Assembly: GCA_018660225.1 (NCBI GenBank)
Contig: JABJKT010000055.1
Coordinates: 641-64,640 of the forward strand
Origin: Kordiimonadaceae bacterium
GTDB taxonomy: Bacteria > Pseudomonadota > Alphaproteobacteria > Sphingomonadales > Emcibacteraceae
DNA length: 64,000 bases
Direction: 5' to 3'
The notes under the pieces were generated by a model. It ran no database searches. It was given only the letters and a program-made list of their open reading frames with translations, and was not told the origin of the DNA. Below are positions 29,086 to 63,700 of the stretch, piece by piece. Position numbers and translations under genes: made by a program. Within the stretch, counting starts at the first letter, position 1; every line of letters begins with the position of its first letter.

Positions 29086-30777
29086 ATGGCTTCTTTCGAT
29101 GGTTTTGAATATGACGTGATCATTGTCGGCTCTGGCGCAGGTGGCGGAATGTCGGCGCATATACTTACAGAAGCGGGGGTAAGGGTTCTTTTGCTTGAAG
29201 CAGGGCGTGATTATGATCCGCTCACCGAAACACCAATGTTTAATGAAAACCATGAAGCGCCGCTGCGCGGTGTGAGCACATCCGATAAGGATTTTGGCTT
29301 TTATGATGCGACGGTAGATGGCGGATGGGACGTGCCGGGTGAGCCCTATACGTCGGCAGAAGGTACTGATTTTATGTGGTATCGTTCACGTATGTTAGGT
29401 GGCAGGACAAACCATTTTGGCCGAATTACCCCACGATTTAACGACCGTGATTTTAAACCGTTCACTCATGATGGGCTTGGTGTGGATTGGCCACTTGAAT
29501 ATGATGAAATGGCCCCGTGGTATGATAAGGCCGAAAAGCTGGTTGGTATTTCAGGTAATAATCCCGGTGTTTATGATGTGCCGGATTCTGGTGAAGGCGT
29601 GCTTCAACCGCCTGCAAAACCTCGTGTTTATGAACTTTTGGTAAAAGAAGCGTCTGAAAAGCTTGGTATTCCTATGGTTCCGATACGCCGCGCTGTGCTA
29701 ACCCGTGCCATTGATGAGCGTGAGGCTTGCTTTAATGCGACGGCTTGCGGACGGGGGTGCTCCATTGGTGCTGCATTTCAGACAACGACGTCGGTTATTC
29801 CATGGGCTAAAAAAACAGGTAATCTTAAAATCGTAACTGATGCAATGGTTAAGGAAGTTCATCTGGGTGATGATGGCAAAACAACCGGTGTTACATTTGT
29901 TAACAGGAAAACCAAGGGTGACGTGCGAGTAGATGCGGATTTTGTCATTCTAGCGGCAAGTGCCTGTGAAACGGCCCGCCTTATGCTTAATTCCAAAAGT
30001 GATAAATTTCCGGGTGGCATTGCTAATTCGAGCGGTCAGGTGGGCCGTAATCTGGTCGATAGTACGGGTGCTGATGTCAGCGGTCATATTCCTGCGCTTA
30101 AAGGACGTCCAAGATATAATGAAGATGGTCTTGATGGTAGCCACCTTTATATTCCCTGGTGGGATTATGATGGTCAGGATGATGGTTCGGTTAATTTCAA
30201 ACGGGGCTATCATTTTGAAGTGGGCGGCGGGTTTGGTGCTCCAAGCATGGGTGTTGGCCGCAGTGTTGATGGATACGGAAAATCTGCTAAACAGGACGTT
30301 CGTGATAATTACGGCAGTAATATCGGCTTTGCCCTGCGAGGTGAAATGGTAATCAGTGATGATTGTTACTGCGAGATTGACGAGCAAGTGAAAGATAAAT
30401 GGGGAATTCCCGTACTCAAGTTTCACTGGAAATGGTCCGAAGAAGAAATTAATCAGGCAGAACATGGCCTTGAATGGGCCGCGAAAATAATTGAAGCCAT
30501 GGGCGGAGTTGTTACATCACCGAAACGAACAGGCGAGGAAGCAATTTTGGCTGGTGGTCAGATCATCCATGAAGTGGGCACAACCCGCATGGGGGATGAT
30601 CCGAAAACGTCGGTTACCAATAAATGGGGACAAACGTGGGATGTTGATAATCTTTATATTATGGACGGTGGTGTTTTTGCATCAAATCCTCATAAAAACT
30701 GCACCATTACCATTCTGACGTTGGCGATGAAAAACGCAACAAAACTGGCGGAACAAATTTTGGGAGAGCGGTCATGA
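29086..30777 (+). CDS. GMC-family FAD-dependent oxidoreductase, catalytic subunit (glucoside 3-dehydrogenase / gluconate 2-dehydrogenase-like)
   Basis: YDVIIVGSGAGGG Rossmann motif with no signal peptide. C-terminal HEVGTTRMG and MDGGVF motifs of GMC enzymes. Confidence 0.85.
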   Translation: MASFDGFEYDVIIVGSGAGGGMSAHILTEAGVRVLLLEAGRDYDPLTETPMFNENHEAPLRGVSTSDKDFGFYDATVDGGWDVPGEPYTSAEGTDFMWYRSRMLGGRTNHFGRITPRFNDRDFKPFTHDGLGVDWPLEYDEMAPWYDKAEKLVGISGNNPGVYDVPDSGEGVLQPPAKPRVYELLVKEASEKLGIPMVPIRRAVLTRAIDEREACFNATACGRGCSIGAAFQTTTSVIPWAKKTGNLKIVTDAMVKEVHLGDDGKTTGVTFVNRKTKGDVRVDADFVILAASACETARLMLNSKSDKFPGGIANSSGQVGRNLVDSTGADVSGHIPALKGRPRYNEDGLDGSHLYIPWWDYDGQDDGSVNFKRGYHFEVGGGFGAPSMGVGRSVDGYGKSAKQDVRDNYGSNIGFALRGEMVISDDCYCEIDEQVKDKWGIPVLKFHWKWSEEEINQAEHGLEWAAKIIEAMGGVVTSPKRTGEEAILAGGQIIHEVGTTRMGDDPKTSVTNKWGQTWDVDNLYIMDGGVFASNPHKNCTITILTLAMKNATKLAEQILGERS

Positions 30778-55018: not shown

Positions 55019-55624
55019 ATGGAAGATAATAAAGACCAAATAGTTCGTCATAGTCTATTCAGCCGCATATTTCACTGGCTGATGGCTGGATGTATTCTTA
55101 CACTGCTGGCAACGGGCTTGCTGCCTGTTTTTGACATAAAGTTTGAGTGGGTCGAACCTCATTGGATTGCCGGGCTGCTTCTGACGGTCGCCGTAGTGAT
55201 ACATATTATAAGATCACTTTCCCCCAAAAAATTAAAATCCTTATGGGTTACTCCTACGGATGTTAGTGAATATATAAAGGGTAGAGGAAAAGTGAGAGGT
55301 GGAAAATATTCGCTTGAGCAAAAATTAATGCATAACGGCATTACTGTTTTCAGTCTCGTATCCCTGATAACAGGTTGGATGATGCTGCTTAAAATAGACA
55401 CGCCATTCTGGGAACGAAATCCGTTTATCTTTGAAGCAGAAACATGGGGCATTATATATGTACTTCACGGGCTATCAACATTGCTATTTGTCAGTTCCGT
55501 TATGATGCATATATATTTTTCATTAAGACCAGAAAAAGCAATGTATCTCAGATCAATGTTTAAGGGCTGGCTAACTCGAGAAGAATTTAACGAAAATCAT
55601 GACCCAGACCGCTGGGATATATAA
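55019..55624 (+). CDS. b-type dihaem cytochrome, FdnI/HyaC-like (PF01292-type)
   Basis: Four TM helices with conserved His residues (RIFHWLMAG; HWIAG...VVIHII; LMHNG; VLHG...MMHIY). Confidence 0.75.
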   Translation: MEDNKDQIVRHSLFSRIFHWLMAGCILTLLATGLLPVFDIKFEWVEPHWIAGLLLTVAVVIHIIRSLSPKKLKSLWVTPTDVSEYIKGRGKVRGGKYSLEQKLMHNGITVFSLVSLITGWMMLLKIDTPFWERNPFIFEAETWGIIYVLHGLSTLLFVSSVMMHIYFSLRPEKAMYLRSMFKGWLTREEFNENHDPDRWDI

Positions 55625-55649
55625 GCGGAACATATAAGAAAGAAAAATT

Positions 55650-56069
55650 ATGAGCGAAGAAAATAAAGAAAAATTGCGTATTTCAATTGATGGTGTTGAA
55701 AAAGGCTATGAGTTTATGCTGGCTTATGCCGCGCAAGGCAGAGATTTTGAATATACTGGCGGTGGCGGCGGACCATCTATCCGTGGTTATCTGGAAGACA
55801 TGACAAAAGGTCTTGAAACAATAGCCGATGATTTTGAAAATGAAATAAATGATGAAATCCAGTCCGGGGCTCATCTTTTTATCGATTTTGTCGATGTGCT
55901 CAGAAATGATGCCGTAAAAGCAAAAACCGCCGTGGAAATGGTTTTAGCACTGCCCTCTATCGGATCACAGGTCGTTGATAATTTAAACGCTTCAATTCAC
56001 CTGCGGGCGGTACTTACTGATCTATTTCTTGTTGATGAGGCTTTAAGTTCTCTTTCAAGAGTAGAATAA
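55650..56069 (+). CDS. hypothetical cytoplasmic protein
   Basis: 139-aa ORF 25 nt after the cytochrome b gene. No signal peptide, TM helix or recognised motif. Confidence 0.55.
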   Translation: MSEENKEKLRISIDGVEKGYEFMLAYAAQGRDFEYTGGGGGPSIRGYLEDMTKGLETIADDFENEINDEIQSGAHLFIDFVDVLRNDAVKAKTAVEMVLALPSIGSQVVDNLNASIHLRAVLTDLFLVDEALSSLSRVE

Positions 56070-56090
56070 TATTTTGCGACTATTTTTAGG

Positions 56091-57395
56091 ATGCCTATCA
56101 TGAAAGCGATTTTAGCTTTTGTTATGATCAACTTTTTCACTTTTTCCTCTGCTTGGGCGCAAGCGGACACGCAAGATGATCTGTTTCAAAAATATCAGGC
56201 CATGGTGATTGTTGAAGAAGCCAATCAGCATTGCCCGCTGCTTTCTCGTATTGAAGCGGAAGCTTTAAACGGGCAAATTGTTTTTGCCGATGCCAGCTTT
56301 TCAGGCAAACTGGATATGGTAGAAAAATTTAAAAAAGAAGCGAGAATTTATGCGCGCAGAGTGGCTTGCAATGCGCCTGATATCTTAGGACTTATTGGGA
56401 TAGCCCGCCAGGAAGCTGGCGATTCAATGATTAATCACTTGCTTCTTTCCAGGCAAATTCATTTACTAGATCTGCAAGACAGGATCGATGGCAAAATCGC
56501 TCGTGGATTGCTGCTTGATTATTTAATTGATGACGAATGGAAGCTCATTGATGAACTTTATGACGATGTGCATGAAAATTACCTGAAGCAGGCTGACGAA
56601 GAAGCATGGGATAGTTATATAGACTCTATCGATAAAGTCGCTGGTGATAAAAAAGCCGAGAAATATTTAGGCAATGAAAAAATAATAGAAACGGGTGCTG
56701 CTGGAAATTTTGAAACAGTCCAGGCAACGGCAACCAACCGAGAGATAACCAGTTATTATTATAATTTAGAGAAAACCACGCGCGCGTTTATTGATGGAGC
56801 AACGGCTGAAGATAAAGGATATCCTTATAGCAGGCCAGCCAACGATTTTACAAAATGGACAGCGTTTCGCCCTCGCGCGGCTGATCTTAACTGGGTTGTG
56901 TCTTACCCCGGCTGCGGCGGCAATCAAACGGAAGTGAAATGCACATTATTTACCAACCAGAAAAATGAAATCGGCGTGGTGCTTCAGGGGGATGTGGGTA
57001 GCGTAACCCTGAATTTCAGAAGCCCTGATAATCAGGAAATTTTTAAAGCCAATAAAGCCGTTGAAGGGCCGATTGGCAGTAATGAACTAAACGAAAATAA
57101 TATGAACGAAAATGCCGAACTTATGGATAGCTCAAATACTAAAAATACGGTTAGTGCTAGATTAAGTACTGAGTATGAACTGTTAAGGGCGCAGACAGGC
57201 GCAGATATAAGTGAAAATTCAGCCGTATATATGTTCCCTGAGCAAACATTGGCGACACTTGAAAAACTTCATAAAAATGACGTGGTTAAATTAACGGTCG
57301 AAATAAAATCCGAGGGCGGTAATAATGAATGGGTAAGCATAATGCCCTTTCATAATTATCACCGTGCGAAAAATTGGGCTTATACTACGCAATAG
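56091..57395 (+). CDS. secreted hypothetical protein
   Basis: 434-aa ORF with a Sec signal (FFTFSSAWAQAD). 21 nt after the previous ORF. No family recognised. Confidence 0.6.
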   Translation: MPIMKAILAFVMINFFTFSSAWAQADTQDDLFQKYQAMVIVEEANQHCPLLSRIEAEALNGQIVFADASFSGKLDMVEKFKKEARIYARRVACNAPDILGLIGIARQEAGDSMINHLLLSRQIHLLDLQDRIDGKIARGLLLDYLIDDEWKLIDELYDDVHENYLKQADEEAWDSYIDSIDKVAGDKKAEKYLGNEKIIETGAAGNFETVQATATNREITSYYYNLEKTTRAFIDGATAEDKGYPYSRPANDFTKWTAFRPRAADLNWVVSYPGCGGNQTEVKCTLFTNQKNEIGVVLQGDVGSVTLNFRSPDNQEIFKANKAVEGPIGSNELNENNMNENAELMDSSNTKNTVSARLSTEYELLRAQTGADISENSAVYMFPEQTLATLEKLHKNDVVKLTVEIKSEGGNNEWVSIMPFHNYHRAKNWAYTTQ

Positions 57396-57421
57396 ATAAC
57401 AGATATTAAAAAGGTGCAGAT

Positions 57422-58333
57422 ATGAAACAGTTAAAAATAATGGTGATGGTGCCGGTTTTCTTAATGCTATTGATCGGTGGCGCATTGGCGCAAGCTGAGT
57501 ATACCACCAAACATACAGTGATGGCCGATGGTCACCCGATGGCCGTTTGGGAAAAATCTATCGATAACCCGAAAGGCATTATTCTGCTGCATCATGGCCG
57601 CACCTGGAGTTCACTTCCTGATTTTGATTTGCAGGTTGAAGGCGAGGAACTGTCCCTTATGGACGGTTTTAATGAGCGTGGGTATTCGGTTTGGGCGATG
57701 GACGCACGTGGCTACGGCGGATCACCCCGCGATGATACAGGTTGGAACACACCAAACAGATCAGCAGAAGATATCTCAATTGTTCTTAATTGGTTGAGTG
57801 AGAGGACCGGCGAAAAAATTCATCTTTGGGGCTGGTCAATGGGTTCAATGCTTGGCCACTTGGCAGCGCAGCAATATCCACAAAATATCAAGAGCTTAAC
57901 ATTATTCGGTTTCCCAATCCCAAAAGGTGCGAAATATCCTGAAGATATTCCGGGTACTGAAGCGCCCCAAGAGAAAACAACGGCAGAGGCTGCGGCTAGC
58001 GATTTCTTAGTGCCAGACTCCATTAGTCAAAAAGCCATAGATGAATATATCAGACACTCGCTGGAAGCGGACCCAGCGCGTATGGATTGGCATTACCAGC
58101 ATCAATATAATGAAATTGATGGAAGCAAATTACCGATGCCGGTATTACTGATGGAAGGCGAGTATGATCCGCTTACCCATGATGATGCCTATGCAGATTT
58201 ATTTATGAAGCTCCCTAATGCCAATAAACAATGGATTGTTTTAAAAGACGGTGACCATGCGGCGCTACTTGAAAAATCCAGAGGAAAACTAATCGACGCG
58301 TCGATCAATTTTATCGAATGGCTTGAAAAGTAA
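57422..58333 (+). CDS. secreted alpha/beta hydrolase
   Basis: Sec signal (LLIGGALAQAE). HHGRTWS oxyanion region, nucleophile elbow GWSMGS, C-terminal DGDH. Confidence 0.75.
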   Translation: MKQLKIMVMVPVFLMLLIGGALAQAEYTTKHTVMADGHPMAVWEKSIDNPKGIILLHHGRTWSSLPDFDLQVEGEELSLMDGFNERGYSVWAMDARGYGGSPRDDTGWNTPNRSAEDISIVLNWLSERTGEKIHLWGWSMGSMLGHLAAQQYPQNIKSLTLFGFPIPKGAKYPEDIPGTEAPQEKTTAEAAASDFLVPDSISQKAIDEYIRHSLEADPARMDWHYQHQYNEIDGSKLPMPVLLMEGEYDPLTHDDAYADLFMKLPNANKQWIVLKDGDHAALLEKSRGKLIDASINFIEWLEK

Positions 58334-58336
58334 GTC

Positions 58337-59152
58337 TTACTGATAGACGAGATAAAGCAGGCCAATTCCTAGCAGCACCCTATAAATGACAAAGGGTGTC
58401 ATGGAAGAGCGCTCAAGCCATTTCATCAAGACAGAAATAGCAATTAAGGCGGAGATAAGTGAAAGTCCCGCTCCCCATAAAAGCTGAACTATTGAGATTT
58501 GTAGTTCAGTTTCGCTCGTCGCAATATTAATCACCTGCAATGTTGCGGCGGCTAGAATTGTCGGTATGGACATCAGCATTGAAAAACGTGCGGCACAAGT
58601 TCTTGAAAACCCCAGTCCCCGAGCAGCTGTCATTGTAATGCCAGAACGGCTTGTGCCTGGAATAAGAGATAACACCTGTGCAAGGCCGATGATAAGGGCA
58701 TGACCGTAGCGTATATCGGCCATCTTTATTTTGACAGGTGATTTTTTATCGTACCAATAAAGCAAAATGCCAAATATAATCGAAGCCCAACCGATAATTT
58801 CTAAGGTTCTCATTGTGTCCGGAATTCCAAATTTCGAGGCCAGTCCGCCAATGATAATGATCGGGATGGTCGAAAGTACTACGGCTAGCATTAAGTGCCG
58901 TTCAGAGTGATTATAGTCTTCTCTAAGCAGCAGCATTTGGCCAAAAGCATGGAACATACGCCCAACATCTTTTCTGAAATAAAGAATTACCGCCATCAAT
59001 GTCCCCACATGAACACCTACATCCATCATTATGCCCTGATCGGGCCAGTCGGTGAGGGCGGGGACTAGTATCAGATGACCAGATGAACTAATGGGTAAAA
59101 ATTCGGTGATGCCCTGAACAACGGCGAGGACGATGATTTGTAATAAGGTCAA
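58337..59152 (-). CDS. uppP: undecaprenyl-diphosphate phosphatase
   Basis: VQGITEFLPISSSGHLIL and PGTSRSGITMTA signature motifs of UppP/BacA. Confidence 0.9.
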   Translation of the reverse strand: MTLLQIIVLAVVQGITEFLPISSSGHLILVPALTDWPDQGIMMDVGVHVGTLMAVILYFRKDVGRMFHAFGQMLLLREDYNHSERHLMLAVVLSTIPIIIIGGLASKFGIPDTMRTLEIIGWASIIFGILLYWYDKKSPVKIKMADIRYGHALIIGLAQVLSLIPGTSRSGITMTAARGLGFSRTCAARFSMLMSIPTILAAATLQVINIATSETELQISIVQLLWGAGLSLISALIAISVLMKWLERSSMTPFVIYRVLLGIGLLYLVYQ

Positions 59153-59164
59153 AATATATTCCCC

Positions 59165-59707
59165 TTATTCATCATCCATCACATCATTATGAAGCAGCAG
59201 GGCGATCCGTGCCATACGTTTCATGGAATTAGCCGATAGTGTTGAGCCGGAAATACCGTTTATTGGCTTATCCAGTTGTGTACTTTCAGTAATCGATGCA
59301 CCGTAATATTGGGCGCGGTGTTGACGGTTTTGAATTTCGTGGCCGCGACTTTCACGGTAAGTGAGCACGCTGACATCTTCGATTTTACCGTCTTCCACAA
59401 CAACTCCGGCCGTGATGGGCATAGTGCGCGCGACGCTTTCAAGAACCCAAAGAGTTCTGTTTCCTTTACGCCAATAACGGTAACGAACGGGTGTGCTTTC
59501 GACACCATTAATTACTTCATTAATGTTATCGCGAAGATCACCAATGACCCAAATAGTGGCCTTTGGTGGTGTGTCGCCGTCAAAAAAACCTTTTACATAT
59601 TCACTTGTTCGCTTAAAGACGCGGTCGGCCGGTTTAAAAGTGCTCTGGGCCGATGCCGACAGTATGCTGATAAGTAGAAAACCAGTGATTATGCTAATAA
59701 GTTTCAT
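59165..59707 (-). CDS. exported FMN-binding-domain protein (ApbE flavinylation substrate type)
   Basis: Sec signal (ISILSASAQS). PINGISGSTLSANS matches the [ST]G[AS]T flavinylation motif of NqrC/RnfG-type FMN_bind domains. Confidence 0.75.
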   Translation of the reverse strand: MKLISIITGFLLISILSASAQSTFKPADRVFKRTSEYVKGFFDGDTPPKATIWVIGDLRDNINEVINGVESTPVRYRYWRKGNRTLWVLESVARTMPITAGVVVEDGKIEDVSVLTYRESRGHEIQNRQHRAQYYGASITESTQLDKPINGISGSTLSANSMKRMARIALLLHNDVMDDE

Positions 59708-59718
59708 CTTTTTCTTTC

Positions 59719-60990
59719 TTAGAACTGTAAGCCCATTCCCAGATTAAATCTGTTATCTTCTTTGGAAACATTGGCATAATTATCAATTTGATAATCTGCT
59801 TTTAGCACAACATTCTGATGAGGCCAATAGTTTACGCCGAAAGATGTTTGTTTGTTTTCAGTATTAATGACACTTCCTGCCTCATTATCCCACATACTGT
59901 AGCGGGCAAATACGCCAATAGCGTGACCATTATCAAGGTTGTGCTTGAAAGAAGGCTCAAGATACCAGCCGCGCTGTATGTCTTTACCGAGCAGTTCTGC
60001 TTCATTACTATCCAAATTCCACTGTGCATAAAGGGCGCGAAAACCTAATTCATTTTTCGTAGAAACCTGATGCTTAATGTCTGCATGGGCGGTAAATAAT
60101 GTCGCGGATGTTGGCTCGCTTGAGGCTTGCGTGAGGTCGCTTTGATATTGTACGGACGCGCCAAGTTTAACGCCAGCAATTGGCATCCAGGTCAAACGTC
60201 CCGTATAAGCGGCATTTTTCCATGTTGCTTTGGCCACTTTTTGACGGCCGCTTCTTATATCAAATGCTTTTGAGCTATCCGATATCGGTGTTTCAAGACC
60301 AGAATGGATCATGGCGTCATAACGGATTGTTTCACCGAGATTGCCGGAAAATTTTACGCCGGCTTCCCACCACGTGGCAGGGATAATGTTTTTCTCAACA
60401 TTGTTTCGCTCAACACCGTAAAATGTTGGTGGTTCATGGGTTTCATTCATAATGCCGACAGGCACGAGCTGTAAGCCTACGGTTGCTGTTGTTATTTCGG
60501 TCATGTCAAATTCGAGGAATGCCTGTTCTAGCTCAACTTCGCCGGGCTTTCCGTTACCGGACAGGGAATGCTCTACTTCCAGTTCACTAAAGAAACGAAT
60601 GCTGTCATTAAATTCATGGCTCGTGAAAAGAACGAAGCGGTGAAAATCAATCTGGTCCGTCTCACCGGCATTATAATGAAGCTCACCATATCCACCGATA
60701 GAGGTAGGGGATGAGGATCTACCGGCGCTCGTATCAAGAACTTCTTCCATTGCCATAACGGTTGCTTCAACCTTTTGGCCTGTCTCTTCCACTTTTTCAG
60801 TGGTCTGTGTCACGGCCTGAGTTGTCTCGCCCAGAAGCTTTTCCATCCGGGAAATCTGCTCTTGTTGTTTTTGGATCATTTCCCACATTTCAGCTTGTGA
60901 CGGCATTTCCTGTGCGAAGGATGAAGAGGCCGCCAGTAACATTGATAATGTTAAAAGTGAGCTTGCAGTTTTTAATTTAGAGCTTTTCAT
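59719..60990 (-). CDS. outer-membrane porin (porin O/P-like) with N-terminal coiled-coil
   Basis: Sec signal (AASSSFAQE), a heptad-rich segment, alternating beta-strand pattern, and a C-terminal ...GMGLQF aromatic terminus. Confidence 0.7.
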   Translation of the reverse strand: MKSSKLKTASSLLTLSMLLAASSSFAQEMPSQAEMWEMIQKQQEQISRMEKLLGETTQAVTQTTEKVEETGQKVEATVMAMEEVLDTSAGRSSSPTSIGGYGELHYNAGETDQIDFHRFVLFTSHEFNDSIRFFSELEVEHSLSGNGKPGEVELEQAFLEFDMTEITTATVGLQLVPVGIMNETHEPPTFYGVERNNVEKNIIPATWWEAGVKFSGNLGETIRYDAMIHSGLETPISDSSKAFDIRSGRQKVAKATWKNAAYTGRLTWMPIAGVKLGASVQYQSDLTQASSEPTSATLFTAHADIKHQVSTKNELGFRALYAQWNLDSNEAELLGKDIQRGWYLEPSFKHNLDNGHAIGVFARYSMWDNEAGSVINTENKQTSFGVNYWPHQNVVLKADYQIDNYANVSKEDNRFNLGMGLQF

Positions 60991-61048
60991 TTTACTTCCA
61001 GTGGTTTCTTTTATAACGTGCGATAATATGTATGTTTATTGTTGCTAT

Positions 61049-61063
61049 TAATAATTATTATTA
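61049..61063. promoter_or_regulatory. perfect 7-1-7 palindrome TAATAAT-T-ATTATTA (Fur-box-like), copy 1
   Basis: Read directly. Compare the Fur 7-1-7 consensus TGATAAT-N-ATTATCA (6/7 per half-site). Centre is ~66 bp from the porin ATG. Confidence 0.45.
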
Positions 61064-61076
61064 ATATAGTTGCTTT

Positions 61077-61091
61077 TAATAATGATTATTA
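61077..61091. promoter_or_regulatory. perfect 7-1-7 palindrome TAATAAT-G-ATTATTA (Fur-box-like), copy 2
   Basis: Read directly, 28 bp from copy 1. Centre is ~62 bp from the apbE ATG at 61146. Confidence 0.45.
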
Positions 61092-61145
61092 ATATTAAAA
61101 GCAACTAAAAAATATAATTTTACGTAAATAATTGATATTTAATTT

Positions 61146-62147
61146 ATGGATGAAGATAAAATGACAAATACCCGTCGCCGCGTTTTAAAAATTATAGCTC
61201 TCTCGACTGGCGTTGCTATGGCCCCGAACGCCTTGCTAGCCGCCAAAAATAAAACTGAAATGTTTGAATGGCATGGCCGGGCACTGGGCGCGGAAACATC
61301 TATTCAGCTTTACGGGGAAGATAAAGAAAAAGCAGATGCCGTTCTTCAAAAAGCAGCCACTATTATTAGCAAATATGAAAAACTGTTTAGTATTTATGAT
61401 GAAAATTCAGCAACCTCGACATTAAATAAGGCAGGCGCACTTGAAAATTCTCCCGAAGAATTTATTGATCTTTTAAAACTTTCAAAGAAATTCAGCACCG
61501 AAACGGATGGCGCTTTTGATATCACCATTCAACCACTATGGAATTTATACCGAAGCCATTTTGACGGCGATGATCGTGAGCGTCTCGAAGGTAAAATATC
61601 AGCGGCACTGGATATCATTGGCTCAGATAAAATAACCATCACTGAGAATGATGTTTCATTTGCTAGGGATAATATGGCCGTCAGCTTTAACGGTATCGCC
61701 CAGGGCTACATCACCGATAAAGTAACAGAATTTTTAACCGAGCAGGGCTATAAAAATGTCCTCGTCGATATGGGCGAATATCGCGCCGCGGCTCCTCAAG
61801 CCAACGGTGAACCATGGCGCATCGGACTACTCGACCCCTTTGATACAGTTTCAATCGCCGATGTCATTGAAATAGACAGCGGCGCAGTAGCAACATCCGG
61901 CGGCTACGGCAACCAGTTCGACGCCAGCGGAAAACATCACCACCTGTTTAATCCGGCGACAGGACTAAGTAGCGATCGCTATGCTTCTGTCACCGTGAGG
62001 GCAGCAGACGCGACAACCGCCGATGCGCTATCAACTGCCTTTTCCAATATGGCGGTAGGCGATATTAAGAGCACTTTATCTAAACATCTTGATGCTCAAG
62101 CCAGATTAACTTTTCAAAACGGTAAAGTGACAACTCTGGTTTCTTAA
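61146..62147 (+). CDS. apbE: FAD:protein FMN transferase (ApbE family), Tat/periplasmic
   Basis: TRRRVLKIIALSTGVAMAP signal. AFDITI, GIAQGY, ATSGGY motifs of ApbE. The start may be the internal MTNT (61161). Confidence 0.85.
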   Translation: MDEDKMTNTRRRVLKIIALSTGVAMAPNALLAAKNKTEMFEWHGRALGAETSIQLYGEDKEKADAVLQKAATIISKYEKLFSIYDENSATSTLNKAGALENSPEEFIDLLKLSKKFSTETDGAFDITIQPLWNLYRSHFDGDDRERLEGKISAALDIIGSDKITITENDVSFARDNMAVSFNGIAQGYITDKVTEFLTEQGYKNVLVDMGEYRAAAPQANGEPWRIGLLDPFDTVSIADVIEIDSGAVATSGGYGNQFDASGKHHHLFNPATGLSSDRYASVTVRAADATTADALSTAFSNMAVGDIKSTLSKHLDAQARLTFQNGKVTTLVS

Positions 62148-62413: not shown

Positions 62414-63700
62414 ATGAGTTCTGAGGGAAAGATTTCGGGGCAGATAAATAAGTTTAAGAGTGTTTTTGAAAAAGAAGGCGCTGCTTTTGTTTGGTCGTTT
62501 CTTTATTTCTTTGCGCTGCTGACGGCTTATTTCATCCTCAGGCCTATTCGTGATGCCATGGGGATTGCTAGTGGGGTCGGGTTCCTTCCTTGGTTATTTT
62601 CGGCGACATTTGTTGTGATGCTGGTGGTTATGCCGATTTACGGCGCGCTTGTTTCGCGCTATCCGCGGCGAAAGTTTATCCCTTATGTTTATCTGTTTTT
62701 TGCCTTAAATCTGGTGATGTTCTGGTATTTCTTTGCCAATAATATTCGTATGGATATCGTGGCGCAGATTTTCTTTGTCTGGCTTAGCGTTTTTAACGTC
62801 TTTGTGGTTTCTATATTCTGGAGCTTCATGGTCGATATTTATAAATCAGGTGATAGTAAAGTGTTATTCGGGCTTATTGCTTCGGGGGGTACCATTGGTG
62901 GTATCGTTGGGCCGAGTATCGTTACCTTTGGCGCTGATGTACTTGGCACGGGAAGCCTGCTGCTTATATCTGCGGCGATTTTGCTGTTTGCTATTTTTTG
63001 CGTTAATAAGCTGGTATCGCTTCGCCGTGATGATCTTGAAGAAACGGAAAGTGCTAATGATAACCAGACACAGGCCATCGGCGGCGGCATCATGTCCGGG
63101 GTGACGGAAGTGTTTAAATCACGCTACCTTATGGGAATAAGCACGCTGGTGTTCCTGCTTTCCTTAACTGCCACATTTGCTTATTTCCAGCAGGGCAGCA
63201 TGATTTATGATGCTTATCCTAATACGGATGAGCGTGTGATGATATTTGGGCAAATCGATCTTTATGTGTCGATTTTTGCCTTTATCTTTCAGGTGTTTAT
63301 TTCCGGGCCGGTTCTATCAAACTACGGTGTTAAAGGCGGGATTATCATATTACCAATTATTACGCTTGTTGGTTTTGCGTTGCTCAGTATTTCCCCAACC
63401 ATTGGCGTGTTCGTCATATTCCAGACACTAAGGCGTGCTAGTGAATATGGCATGTTCGTGCCGTCACGTGAAAACCTGTTCAGCGTGGTAAGTCGCGAAC
63501 AGAAATATAAATCGAAAAACTTCATCGACACGGTGGTGTTCCGGGGCGGTGATGTGGCCAACGGCTGGTTTTATAATTTACTAAATTCGGCCATGGGGCT
63601 TTCGATCAGTGCCATTGCGATGATAGGGGTTCCTATCGCGGCAGTTTGGGGTGTGCTTGCTTGGCGACTTGGAAAAACACACGAGGAAAAAGCGTCATAA
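62414..63700 (+). CDS. MFS-type transporter, TLC/NTT (nucleotide exchange transporter)-like
   Basis: About 12 TM helices. The first TM ends in LTAYFILRPIRDAMG, which resembles the conserved N-terminal motif of TLC-like MFS proteins. Substrate unknown. Confidence 0.65.
   Translation: MSSEGKISGQINKFKSVFEKEGAAFVWSFLYFFALLTAYFILRPIRDAMGIASGVGFLPWLFSATFVVMLVVMPIYGALVSRYPRRKFIPYVYLFFALNLVMFWYFFANNIRMDIVAQIFFVWLSVFNVFVVSIFWSFMVDIYKSGDSKVLFGLIASGGTIGGIVGPSIVTFGADVLGTGSLLLISAAILLFAIFCVNKLVSLRRDDLEETESANDNQTQAIGGGIMSGVTEVFKSRYLMGISTLVFLLSLTATFAYFQQGSMIYDAYPNTDERVMIFGQIDLYVSIFAFIFQVFISGPVLSNYGVKGGIIILPIITLVGFALLSISPTIGVFVIFQTLRRASEYGMFVPSRENLFSVVSREQKYKSKNFIDTVVFRGGDVANGWFYNLLNSAMGLSISAIAMIGVPIAAVWGVLAWRLGKTHEEKAS

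Follow-up and report, generated by a model that had tools for sequence, protein, structure and literature searches.

The 155-bp region between the divergently transcribed porin and apbE genes contains two palindromes that are probably a pair of Fur-family operators, most probably read by Fur itself, in a control region shared by both transcription units. The two units encode the parts of a flavinylation module that would be linked to iron. From the sequence of this region and its counterparts in related genomes, we infer the identity of the regulator, the metal that it senses, the mode of repression, and the positions of the promoters. The features of the locus are listed in Table 1; the window denotes the whole stretch of DNA analyzed, 64 kb (64,000 nucleotides).

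Table 1. Features of the porin/apbE locus, in window coordinates
Feature	Coordinates	Strand	Details
Undecaprenyl-diphosphatase UppP/BacA	58337-59152	-	starts 12 nt past the FMN_bind stop
Periplasmic FMN-binding protein	59165-59707	-	180 aa; Sec signal peptide
Porin_O_P outer-membrane porin	59719-60990	-	423 aa; PF07396, E = 5.6e-07
Porin leader block	60991-61022	-	CGCACGTTATAAAAGAAACCACTGGAAGTAAA, then ATG; ribosome-binding site GGAAG
Candidate porin promoter	61023-61051	-	TTAATA (61051-61046), 17-nt spacer, TATTAT (61028-61023); by consensus match only
Direct-repeat modules	61041-61067 and 61069-61095	+	28-bp period; 25/27 identical
Box 1 (porin-proximal), 17-nt form	61048-61064		TTAATAATtATTATTAA
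Box 1 (porin-proximal)	61049-61063		perfect 7-1-7 palindrome TAATAATtATTATTA; 25.3 bits, clade matrix
41-bp palindrome	61067-61107		15-bp arms TAGTTGCTTTTAATA (61067-81) and TATTAAAAGCAACTA (61093-107), 11-nt center
Alternative apbE promoter	61070-61098	+	TTGCTT (61070-75), 17-nt spacer = box 2, TATTAA (61093-98); predicted
Mirror porin promoter	61104-61099 and 61081-61076	-	TTGCTT (61104-61099), 17-nt spacer, TATTAA (61081-61076); predicted
Box 2 (apbE-proximal), 17-nt form	61076-61092		
Box 2 (apbE-proximal)	61077-61091		perfect 7-1-7 palindrome TAATAATgATTATTA; 27.1 bits, clade matrix
Weaker 7-1-7 site	61083-61097		TGATTATTAATATTA; overlaps box 2, 6 bp offset; 11/14
Candidate apbE promoter	61089-61118	+	TTAATA, 18-nt spacer, TATAAT; by consensus match only, 10/12
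ApbE, FAD:protein FMN transferase	61146-62147	+	PF02424, E = 4e-63
MFS transporter, downstream of apbE	62414-63700	+	

Twin palindromes and the genes that they separate

Both palindromes, TAATAAT-N-ATTATTA, lie exactly where the original prediction had placed them, both are perfect dyads, and no further exact copy occurs in the window. The distances given for them are also correct, with 66 bp from the center of box 1 to the porin start codon (60990) and 62 bp from the center of box 2 to that of apbE (61146). The classical Fur box is described in E. coli as the 19-bp sequence GATAATGATAATCATTATC and in B. subtilis as the 7-1-7 sequence TGATAAT-N-ATTATCA, the 19-mer being two overlapping 7-1-7 sites. 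In B. subtilis, the G/C pair at position 2 and the mirror position 14 separates Fur boxes from PerR and Zur boxes. Each window box agrees with the 7-1-7 consensus at 12 of 14 positions, in line with the 6 of 7 per half-site claimed for it. The half-sites contain no G or C at all, and in both boxes the Fur-discriminating G (position 2) and C (position 14) are replaced by A/T. Since position 2 is A and not G, the regulator could be a paralogue within the Fur family.

Box 2 is overlapped by a weaker 7-1-7 site, and the two together form an array of 19-21 bp resembling a classical Fur box (61077-61097), whose minus-strand 19-mer AATATTAATAATCATTATT (61078-61096) matches the E. coli consensus at 15 of 19 positions. 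The boxes are embedded in a larger repeated structure. The previously reported 26-nt direct repeat (24/26 identical, 28-bp period) is real and is contained in slightly longer modules, each of which reads GTTGCTwTTAATAATnATTATTAATAT. The perfect inverted repeat around box 2 is present as well, but with 15 bp per arm, one more than the 14 bp claimed, and the description of box 2 as bracketed by it is imprecise, as the left arm covers the first 5 nt of the box. The center of symmetry of this outer repeat, 61087, is shared by the combined 21-mer and is displaced 3 bp rightward from that of box 2 (61084).

Chance occurrence was estimated from 20,000 shuffles of the intergenic region (155 bp, 83% A+T) that preserved its dinucleotides. 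The probability of at least two perfect 7-1-7 palindromes was 0.007, and that of at least two sites matching the Fur 7-1-7 consensus at 12 or more of 14 positions was 0.0003. Seven matches with at most two mismatches were found in the entire window, compared to 0.93 expected, and five of the seven fall in the porin/apbE intergenic region. With a weight matrix built from the clade sites described below, the boxes score 25-27 bits and the rest of the window does not exceed 10.1 bits, except for a 12.1-bit match overlapping box 1. Judged by the E. coli 19-mer alone, the boxes do no better (15/19) than chance matches in coding regions at 30640 and 20715; ranking of window sites by this consensus alone does not discriminate and was rejected. 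The significance of the boxes comes from their symmetry, duplication, intergenic position, and conservation, and not from the consensus score.

The gene calls on both sides were borne out by profile matches (Porin_O_P, FMN_bind, BacA, ApbE, and MFS_1). The leftward unit starts with the porin, which carries a signal peptide and, N-terminally, a segment resembling a coiled coil, and whose thousands of homologues include, as the closest, those of Emcibacteraceae and Kordiimonadaceae. The FMN-binding protein follows, with a variant of the flavinylation motif, NGISGSTLS, at residues 149-157 (DGI(S/T)GAT(L/M)S in orthologues). The uppP gene may be co-transcribed with this pair: its synteny is retained throughout the clade, and a search for terminator-like sites between FMN_bind and uppP found none. 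The rightward unit starts with apbE, whose product carries the twin-arginine signal TRRRVLK, and may also contain the MFS transporter gene, which follows apbE in L002, L003, L082, L084, L085, and L209, and also in L210, where a flagellin gene intervenes. Since ApbE attaches FMN covalently to FMN-binding domains, the two units form one functional module, of which both the exported ApbE and its FMN_bind substrate with the flavinylation motif are present in the window. A search for PepSY_TM in the window and in seven clade loci (L001-L003, L081, L082, L084, and L085) found none, and the gene calls of the other clade loci show none beside FMN_bind; without this partner, it is less certain here than in other lineages that the module acts as an iron reductase. 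Neither fur nor any other Fur-family gene was found in the window or the clade loci, including by tblastn with E. coli Fur. No Fur-family gene and no other iron-uptake gene that could calibrate the local Fur motif is among the 29 window proteins scanned, and the clade loci contain no iron-uptake genes either.

Conservation in the clade and in distant lineages

The window comes from an alphaproteobacterium of the Emcibacteraceae close to Pseudemcibacter, and the clade sample comprised 13 loci. In all 13, apbE is divergent from the porin gene, an arrangement also seen in Parvibaculaceae loci, and in all 13 two boxes are conserved upstream of the orthologous pair, separated by 28 bp from center to center in nine. 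In the boxes, the modal base makes up a fraction of 0.94 and 0.91 (0.94 for box 2), which drops to 0.69 in the spacer and to 0.56-0.63 in the flanks; the random value is 0.53. The 52 half-sites of the clade have the composition T52, R (A43, G9), A51, K (T31, G21), A52, A52, T50, that is, the consensus T-R-A-K-A-A-T, with the AAT-N-ATT core around the dyad near-invariant. The corresponding box consensus is TTRAKAAT-N-ATTMTYAA, plus conserved TAT/ATA flanks, and in genome-scan form the motif is TTRAKAATNATTMTYAA. Position 2 is either A or the Fur base G; the PerR base T and the Zur base C occur in 0 of the 52 half-sites. G/C is found at the discriminating positions in relatives L003, L210, L085, L209, and L008, the last of which has a perfect TGATAATaATTATCA. 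In the more distant Emcibacter-type loci (L004-L007 and L009), an all-A/T box is paired with TTGATAATGCAAATCA, and GATAAT-GCAAAT arrays occupy the same region in Emcibacter-type relatives.

The palindrome is not scattered at random over A+T-rich intergenic DNA: neither the window nor any related locus has it outside this region. A threshold of 15/16 retains sites in the porin/apbE intergenic region alone, both in the window and in each clade locus; for Pseudemcibacter aquimaris, 21 kb was covered.

The association of the porin with the FMN-binding protein extends far beyond the clade. The two genes are adjacent in 78 of 80 genome loci across phyla, and a PepSY_TM gene follows the pair in 72 of the 80. 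In Gammaproteobacteria, Verrucomicrobia, and other Alphaproteobacteria, the orthologous porin operons have canonical Fur-box sequences. All the computational checks proposed with the original prediction that were run favor it. A match to GATAATGATAATCATTATC at 14 or more of 19 positions lies at most 200 bp upstream of the porin gene in 42% of 77 genome loci, whereas the same criterion is satisfied by 1.7% of shuffles and 5% of A+T-rich control windows. Fur-box words such as AATGAGAAT and ATGCAAAT are enriched about 10-fold upstream of the porin pair in distant lineages; among 8-mers in the 68 lineages outside the clade, AATGAGAA, ATGCAAAT, GATTTGCA, and GAGAATCA show this approximately 10-fold enrichment.

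Candidate promoters and alternative explanations

Every sigma-70-like candidate on either strand overlaps or abuts a box, though such hexamers are expected in DNA with 83% A+T. The -35 element of the candidate apbE promoter at 61089-61118 overlaps the right edge of box 2, and its TATAAT is poorly conserved in relatives; the -35 element of the candidate porin promoter overlaps box 1. The outer elements of the alternative, mirrored pair of promoters are recurrent, as the left TTGC and the right GCAA are seen again in most relatives (TTGC/TTGT about 17-20 nt left of box A in 12/13, and GCAA/ACAA to the right in about 9/13). The A-rich block of the porin leader is conserved across the clade (TTTTAAAAGAGAAwATTGGAAGT in relatives). 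Assignment of promoters by consensus was rejected, as each strand has several overlapping and mutually inconsistent candidates, none of which is singled out by conservation. The arrangement of one operator per promoter, suggested originally, would be only one among several geometries that the sequence allows.

Alternatively, the palindromes could be mainly core promoter architecture, with overlapping, face-to-face divergent promoters whose hexamers and spacers are symmetric by chance, or sites for a nucleoid-associated protein, without a dedicated metalloregulator. We regard this as very doubtful. TTAATA and (C/G)ATTAT-type hexamers do occur inside each box, a -35 TTGCTT and a -10 TATTAA can be discerned in the 15-bp outer arms on both strands, and the 28-bp spacing lets one box be the -35 element and the other the -10 element in either direction, with the geometry in the apbE direction present in 8 of 13 species. 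The region 60900-61250 (351 bases) contains four promoter-like sites, compared to 1.7 expected. However, hexamers need neither a perfect 7-1-7 dyad nor near-invariance at all 17 positions of both boxes, and G+C-richer lineages retain Fur-box words, beyond what mere A+T-richness would give. Besides, promoter and operator roles are compatible, such overlap being the usual mode of Fur repression. An even less probable explanation, which we consider highly improbable, is that the 41-nt palindrome functions by folding into a hairpin, in RNA or DNA (for example, as an attenuator, a cruciform, or a structured leader RNA), and is not a protein operator. Its folding energy of -16.3 kcal/mol (z = -6.5 to -7.3 against shuffles) is a trivial consequence of any inverted repeat. 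Some mirrored changes preserve the complementarity of the arms in L001 and L003 (GTTGTTATTAAT / ATTAATAACAAC), and the covariation score of 0.211, against 0.142 in shuffles, is matched by 3 of 500 shuffles; nevertheless, the outer arms are only partly conserved, with 70.8% of cells paired over 13 species compared to 65.5% in shuffles, and registers slid by 3 columns still pair in about 60%. The conserved unit is the 17-nt box rather than the arms, box 1 has no comparable outer arms, and neither an Rfam match nor a U-tract or terminator was found for the palindrome. The RNA-element reading of 61067-61107 was rejected, as its pairing is weakly conserved and it belongs to no Rfam family.

The absence of the discriminating G raises a different question, namely, whether the boxes are operators of another Fur-family paralogue, such as a PerR-like or Irr-like sensor of peroxide or haem, or a manganese-responsive Mur, in which case the module would sense oxidative stress, haem, or manganese. 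We consider this unlikely. The PerR box of B. subtilis, TTATAAT-N-ATTATAA, has T at position 2, and the PerR targets are katA/katG, ahpC, dps/mrgA, and perR itself. The window boxes share its geometry and match it at 12 of 14 positions too, the half-site TAATAAT being one base from both the Fur (TGATAAT) and the PerR (TTATAAT) consensus half-sites. Further, of 120 unrelated metagenomic contigs with the exact 19-mer ATTAAKAATNATTMTTAAT, six, from other phyla, have it immediately before a PerR-like gene of the Fur family; all six genes match PerR models best, though below the cut-offs, and three of them adjoin katG, dps, or rubrerythrin. Against a PerR-like reader, the discriminating position is never T in the clade, and the targets, being the porin, FMN_bind, and ApbE of an iron-linked flavinylation module and not catalase, Dps, or AhpC, are atypical for a peroxide stimulon. 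The six PerR-like genes were the sole signal in a metagenome-wide scan for ATTAAKAATNATTMTTAAT meant to rebuild the regulon, which was rejected: its 120 loci have a median G+C content of 32%, are mostly chance A+T-rich matches, and include none from relatives of the window organism. Another candidate, a bacterioferritin gene that directly follows TTAAGAATgATTCTTAA on contig L140, was rejected as a member of an Emcibacteraceae regulon; its nearest named homologues are from Spirochaetota and Fibrobacter, and so it is uninformative on Emcibacteraceae.

The Irr-binding ICE motif, TTTRGAAYNRTTCYAAA (PMC1698941), is likewise a 17-bp palindrome of Alphaproteobacteria, and the G-containing clade variant TTAAGAATnATTCTTAA agrees with it at 12 of 14 specified positions. 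The window boxes, on the other hand, agree at 10 of 14 and have A at position 3, where ICE has T, and the central AAT-N-ATT, near-invariant in the clade as in Fur boxes, is degenerate at the equivalent ICE positions. Irr and ICE have been reported only for Rhizobiales and Rhodobacterales, apart from a few further species with minimal regulons (PMC1698941). Fur is also favored over a paralogue by two observations: lineages lacking Irr- or PerR-type control have canonical Fur arrays at the orthologous operons, and the Emcibacter-type relatives have GATAAT-GCAAAT arrays. It is improbable, in our opinion, that T-R-A-K-A-A-T with a favored A represents a fourth class of Fur-family operators with a lineage-specific PerR- or Irr-like reader; this widely conserved but uncharacterized module would then be under redox or haem control in Emcibacteraceae, and each of the 28-bp-spaced twin boxes would serve as a -35 element one way and a -10 element the other.

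Proposed switch and its relation to known systems

With Fur as the preferred regulator, we propose the following switch. When iron is sufficient, Fe2+-Fur dimers would bind to a single 7-1-7 site at box 1, and at box 2 to the 19-21-bp array that it forms with its 6-bp-offset partner. Since each plausible -35 or -10 hexamer, on either strand, lies under or next to a box, bound Fur would shut RNA polymerase out of both promoters. When iron is scarce, Fur would be released and both units turned on together, the leftward one comprising the porin, the periplasmic FMN-binding protein, and possibly uppP, and the rightward one apbE and possibly the MFS transporter. Their products would provide an outer-membrane channel and a flavinylated periplasmic redox protein for iron reduction or uptake. 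Flavinylation clusters have already been linked to the reduction and assimilation of ferric iron, and this one is a variant without PepSY_TM. Outside Rhizobiales and Rhodobacteraceae, the Alphaproteobacteria have kept Fur as the iron regulator (PMC1698941); the same paper quotes AATGATAATnATTATCATT as the classical Fur-box motif.

If this prediction is correct, the Fur regulon reaches the little-studied marine order Emcibacterales, and the module of porin, FMN-binding protein, ApbE, and, in many lineages, PepSY_TM is a recurrent Fur target from Alphaproteobacteria to Verrucomicrobia. It would also back the proposal that extracytosolic flavinylation takes part in iron acquisition. It would further point to a dedicated outer-membrane channel; the term 'porin' has no occurrences in the eLife survey of flavinylation clusters (PMC8238504). 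The practical value lies in annotation and in a clean, highly symmetric test site for the specificity of Fur-family proteins at the discriminating base.

The window boxes resemble the classical Fur box in their 7-1-7 dyad geometry and in lying at the promoter of genes connected with iron assimilation, and relatives have canonical versions containing G/C. The difference is at positions 2 and 14, which are G/C in the classical box and A/T in the window as well as in 83% of clade half-sites. Bidirectional promoter regions controlled by Fur are known from E. coli, where they serve fepA-fes and fepB-entC. As in these cases, a short divergent intergenic region serves two functionally linked units, and its predicted Fur sites would overlap their promoters; the porin/apbE region differs in that its two perfect palindromes are nearly identical and have a conserved spacing of 28 bp, one of them lying within a 41-bp palindrome.

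Among flavinylation systems, the closest are the PepSY-like clusters, which have been implicated in iron reduction and are repressed by Fur in Shewanella and Caulobacter (PMC8238504, PMC3751524). The window has the ApbE and the motif-bearing FMN_bind protein of the PepSY-like system but no PepSY_TM (PMC8238504). The so1188-so1190 locus of Shewanella oneidensis and the CC_3059-CC_3063 locus of Caulobacter likewise combine ApbE with an exported flavinylated protein, there under Fur and iron control (PMC8238504, PMC3751524, PMC2535785, PMC2667191); in most lineages, a PepSY_TM gene comes after the porin/FMN_bind pair. We rejected the possibility that our module is the Shewanella so1188-so1190 system, which consists of PepSY_TM and DUF4198/DUF2271-type proteins. 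Both known loci have DUF2271/DUF4198 proteins and no porin, whereas here FMN_bind is combined with a dedicated Porin_O_P channel, and the adjacent PepSY_TM gene has been lost in the window clade. The regulatory element itself, paired Fur boxes in a divergent promoter, is of a textbook type, and the porin/apbE region is most likely an ordinary new example of this known switch.

Paired palindromes between the porin and apbE genes

The region between the divergently transcribed porin and apbE genes contains two palindromes resembling the Fur 7-1-7 box (TGATAAT-N-ATTATCA), at exactly the positions given in the original prediction. The direct repeat described there (24/26 identical, 28-bp period) is real and keeps this period, but its modules extend to 27 nt; the inverted repeat around box 2 is likewise real, with arms of 15 bp rather than 14 bp. 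The dyad of the latter (61087) lies 3 bp to the right of that of box 2 (61084), where the centre of a classical 19-21-bp Fur array made up of box 2 and its weaker overlapping partner would fall.

Features of the porin/apbE locus and related sites (window positions unless a locus is named)
Feature	Location	Strand	Remarks
UppP, undecaprenyl-diphosphatase	58337-59152	minus	
FMN_bind protein	59165-59707	minus	
Porin, Porin_O_P family	59719-60990	minus	
Porin/apbE intergenic region	60991-61145		155 bp, 83% A+T
Porin leader	60991-61022	minus	
Direct-repeat modules	61041-61067, 61069-61095		27 nt each, 25/27 identical, 28-bp period
Box 1 (porin-proximal)	61049-61063		TAATAATtATTATTA
Box 2 (apbE-proximal)	61077-61091		TAATAATgATTATTA
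Outer inverted repeat	61067-81 with 61093-107		15-bp arms
Weaker site overlapping box 2	61083-61097		11/14
Match to E. coli consensus, 19-mer	61078-61096	minus	15/19
Candidate promoter TTAATA-18-TATAAT	61089-61118	plus	consensus scan
Candidate promoter TTGCTA-17-TATAGT	61042-61070	plus	consensus scan
Candidate promoter TTAATA-17-TATTAT	61051-61023	minus	consensus scan
Candidate promoter TTAATA-18-TATATT	61092-61063	minus	consensus scan
Candidate promoter TTGCTT-17-TATTAA	41-bp palindrome	both	direct reading of sequence
ApbE flavin transferase	61146-62147	plus	
MFS transporter	62414-63700	plus	
Cytochrome b561	55019-55624		heads block 55019-58333
139-aa gene	55650-56069		
434-aa signal-peptide gene	56091-57395		
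Flagellin gene	L081 69-896; L210 7884-8711		directly 3' of apbE
19-mer before PerR-like gene	L098 6765-6783		with katG
19-mer before PerR-like gene	L121 1054-1072		with dps
19-mer before PerR-like gene	L154 1155-1173		with rubrerythrin
19-mer before PerR-like gene	L186 2938-2956		
19-mer before PerR-like gene	L198 8098-8116		
19-mer before PerR-like gene	L205 5885-5903		
19-mer before bacterioferritin gene	L140 2220-2238		
19-mer before desulfoferrodoxin-domain gene	L152 669-687		
19-mer before DcaP-family gene	L125 238-256		

At such A+T content, one perfect 7-1-7 palindrome is no rarity, being present in 12% of shuffles of the intergenic region; in the same shuffles, two perfect palindromes have P = 0.007, and two sites with an additional 12/14 match to the Fur 7-1-7 have P = 0.0003. 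Seven sites with at most two mismatches were observed across the window versus 0.93 expected, five of them inside the porin/apbE region. On a matrix made from related sites, the boxes score 25-27 bits, and no other window site exceeds 10.1 bits except a 12.1-bit match overlapping box 1; the E. coli 19-mer match count alone fails to set the boxes apart from a few coding-region matches in the window.

The closest homologs of the porin (63-86% identity) belong to Emcibacteraceae and Kordiimonadaceae MAGs and to Pseudemcibacter aquimaris, whose synteny with the window extends over at least 20 kb. Conservation upstream of orthologous porin/apbE pairs, a check proposed with the original prediction, was observed throughout this clade: two boxes are present in the intergenic region of 13/13 loci compared, with a centre-to-centre spacing of 28 bp in nine, 29 bp in two, 25 bp in one, and 34 bp in one. 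Random occurrence of the palindrome in other intergenic regions was named there as a refuting condition; no site of at least 15/16 was found outside this intergenic region in any clade locus. The 52 half-sites read T (52), R (43 A, 9 G), A (51), K (31 T, 21 G), A (52), A (52), T (50), and are flanked by a conserved TAT. When the nine loci with the 28-bp spacing are aligned without gaps, the modal-base fraction is 0.94 in box A (box 2 of the window), 0.91 in box B (box 1), 0.69 in the spacer between them, 0.56-0.63 in the flanks, and 0.53 in random columns. Such a pattern is a clear phylogenetic footprint of two dyad-symmetric, protein-sized sites at a constrained distance.

Promoter geometry and the flanking genes

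Several overlapping candidate promoters were found on each strand. TTGC to the left of box A and GCAA to its right recur in most relatives. At the 28-bp spacing, one box could be the -35 element and the other the -10 element, in either direction. In every candidate geometry the boxes coincide with core promoter elements, consistent with repression by occlusion; one operator per promoter, as originally proposed, is possible. The porin leader is conserved in the clade beyond the ribosome-binding site (TTTTAAAAGAGAAwATTGGAAGT in relatives, GTTATAAAAGAAACCACTGGAAGT in the window). About 25 nt downstream of box B there is also a conserved TACATA/TTACATAA block, which might represent the true -10 and start site or a site of post-transcriptional control. 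The 41-nt palindrome, if transcribed, would fold (z about -7), but its pairing is only 71% conserved, compared with 65% for shuffles and roughly 60% when the register is shifted by 3 columns; it has no Rfam match, and no terminator was found.

The window ApbE carries a twin-arginine signal, and a Sec signal peptide is present in the FMN_bind protein together with a variant flavinylation motif, NGISGSTLS (DGI(S/T)GAT(L/M)S in orthologs). One divergent unit therefore codes for an enzyme and the other for its likely substrate, so that their co-regulation makes sense. In two clade members, apbE is directly followed by a flagellin gene, which in P. aquimaris (L210) stands between apbE and the MFS gene and is not found at this position in the window. 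The cytochrome b561 block adjoining the porin cluster ends with an alpha/beta hydrolase gene and contains two genes without Pfam or NCBIfam matches (139 and 434 aa); its synteny is kept in P. aquimaris and, at least partly, in clade loci L082 and L085.

Candidate regulators

Fur is the best candidate for the regulator, given the box match and conservation, the Fur boxes at orthologous loci, the iron-linked genes, and the retention of Fur in Alphaproteobacteria. It is kept as the iron regulator in this class outside Rhizobiales and Rhodobacteraceae, whereas Irr and its binding box ICE are confined to those groups and to a few other species, in which the regulons are minimal (PMC1698941). The main uncertainty over the regulator identity is the discriminating base at position 2 of the half-site, which is A in the window boxes. 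Fur boxes have G here and PerR boxes have T. Since A is neither of these, a PerR- or Irr-like paralog of the Fur family is a rival reader of the boxes; however, G is the sole alternative to A among the 52 clade half-sites and T never occurs, the AAT-N-ATT core is fixed in the clade, and the targets are iron-linked genes.

A metagenome scan for the exact clade 19-mer, ATTAAKAATNATTMTTAAT, yielded 120 loci, mostly low-G+C chance matches. On six unrelated contigs it stands immediately upstream of a Fur-family gene, and thus represents a sequence class used by Fur-family proteins. In favor of the paralog, all six products score best against PerR models, below the cut-off, and three of the six genes neighbor katG, dps, or rubrerythrin; these loci look like autoregulated PerR operons having a box with A at the Fur/PerR-discriminating position. 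The 19-mer also directly precedes the genes for a bacterioferritin (nearest homologs in Spirochaetota/Fibrobacter), a TAT-exported desulfoferrodoxin-domain protein, and a DcaP-family outer-membrane protein. With Fur as the favored regulator, sequence comparison, as far as it can reach, supports the original prediction that a dimeric metal-type repressor co-regulates both divergent units: a conserved pair of Fur-type operators would control the porin/FMN_bind and apbE module, for which we infer the regulator identity, the metal sensed, and the exact promoter geometry.

The porin and FMN_bind module in distant lineages

Of 80 porin-centred genome loci, which come from Alpha- and Gammaproteobacteria (Shewanella, Colwellia, Kangiella), Verrucomicrobia, Bdellovibrionota, and Planctomycetota, 78 have an FMN_bind gene after the porin gene, and in 72 a PepSY_TM gene encoding a short protein follows (directly downstream in 71); ApbE is encoded at most 4 kb away in 33. 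In 42% of 77 genome loci, the 200 bp preceding the porin gene contain a match of at least 14/19 to the E. coli Fur 19-mer (for instance, GCAAATGAGAATCATTCTC, GTAAATGCAAATCATTATC, and GATAATGCAAACTATTATC), versus 1.7% in shuffles and 5% in the most A+T-rich control windows. An unbiased count in 68 loci outside the clade gave the approximately 10-fold enriched 8-mers AATGAGAA, ATGCAAAT, GATTTGCA, and GAGAATCA. One step further out from the clade, the Emcibacter-type relatives L004-L007 and L009 have TTGATAATGCAAATCA together with an all-A/T box, and a perfect TGATAATaATTATCA is present in L008. These matches and words indicate that Fur boxes recur at the porin operon, the all-A/T boxes of the window being the local version. 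A second word family (ATCTAAAT, CTAAATCA, CATTTAGA, and TGATCTAA), 7- to 11-fold enriched in the 200 bp before the porin gene in the distant loci L010-L080, may extend the local Fur array or constitute a second site.

PepSY-like systems have been tied to iron reduction and assimilation in an eLife survey of flavinylation clusters (PMC8238504), and Fur represses such clusters in Shewanella and Caulobacter (PMC8238504; PMC3751524). Unlike almost all other loci, the window clade has no PepSY_TM gene adjacent to FMN_bind, uppP beginning 12 nt past it instead (59152-59165), and no PepSY_TM homolog was found in the whole 64-kb window. An MFS gene follows apbE in the clade but not in the Emcibacter loci L004 and L009, which keep PepSY_TM. 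A term search found no "porin" in the text of the survey (PMC8238504). The porin and FMN_bind pair may be an uncharacterized periplasmic route of iron reduction that is under Fur control and has an outer-membrane channel of its own. Since the published clusters, so1188-1190 of Shewanella and CC_3059-3063 of Caulobacter, are built on DUF4198/DUF2271 proteins and lack a porin, the present module is their relative, though a different system.
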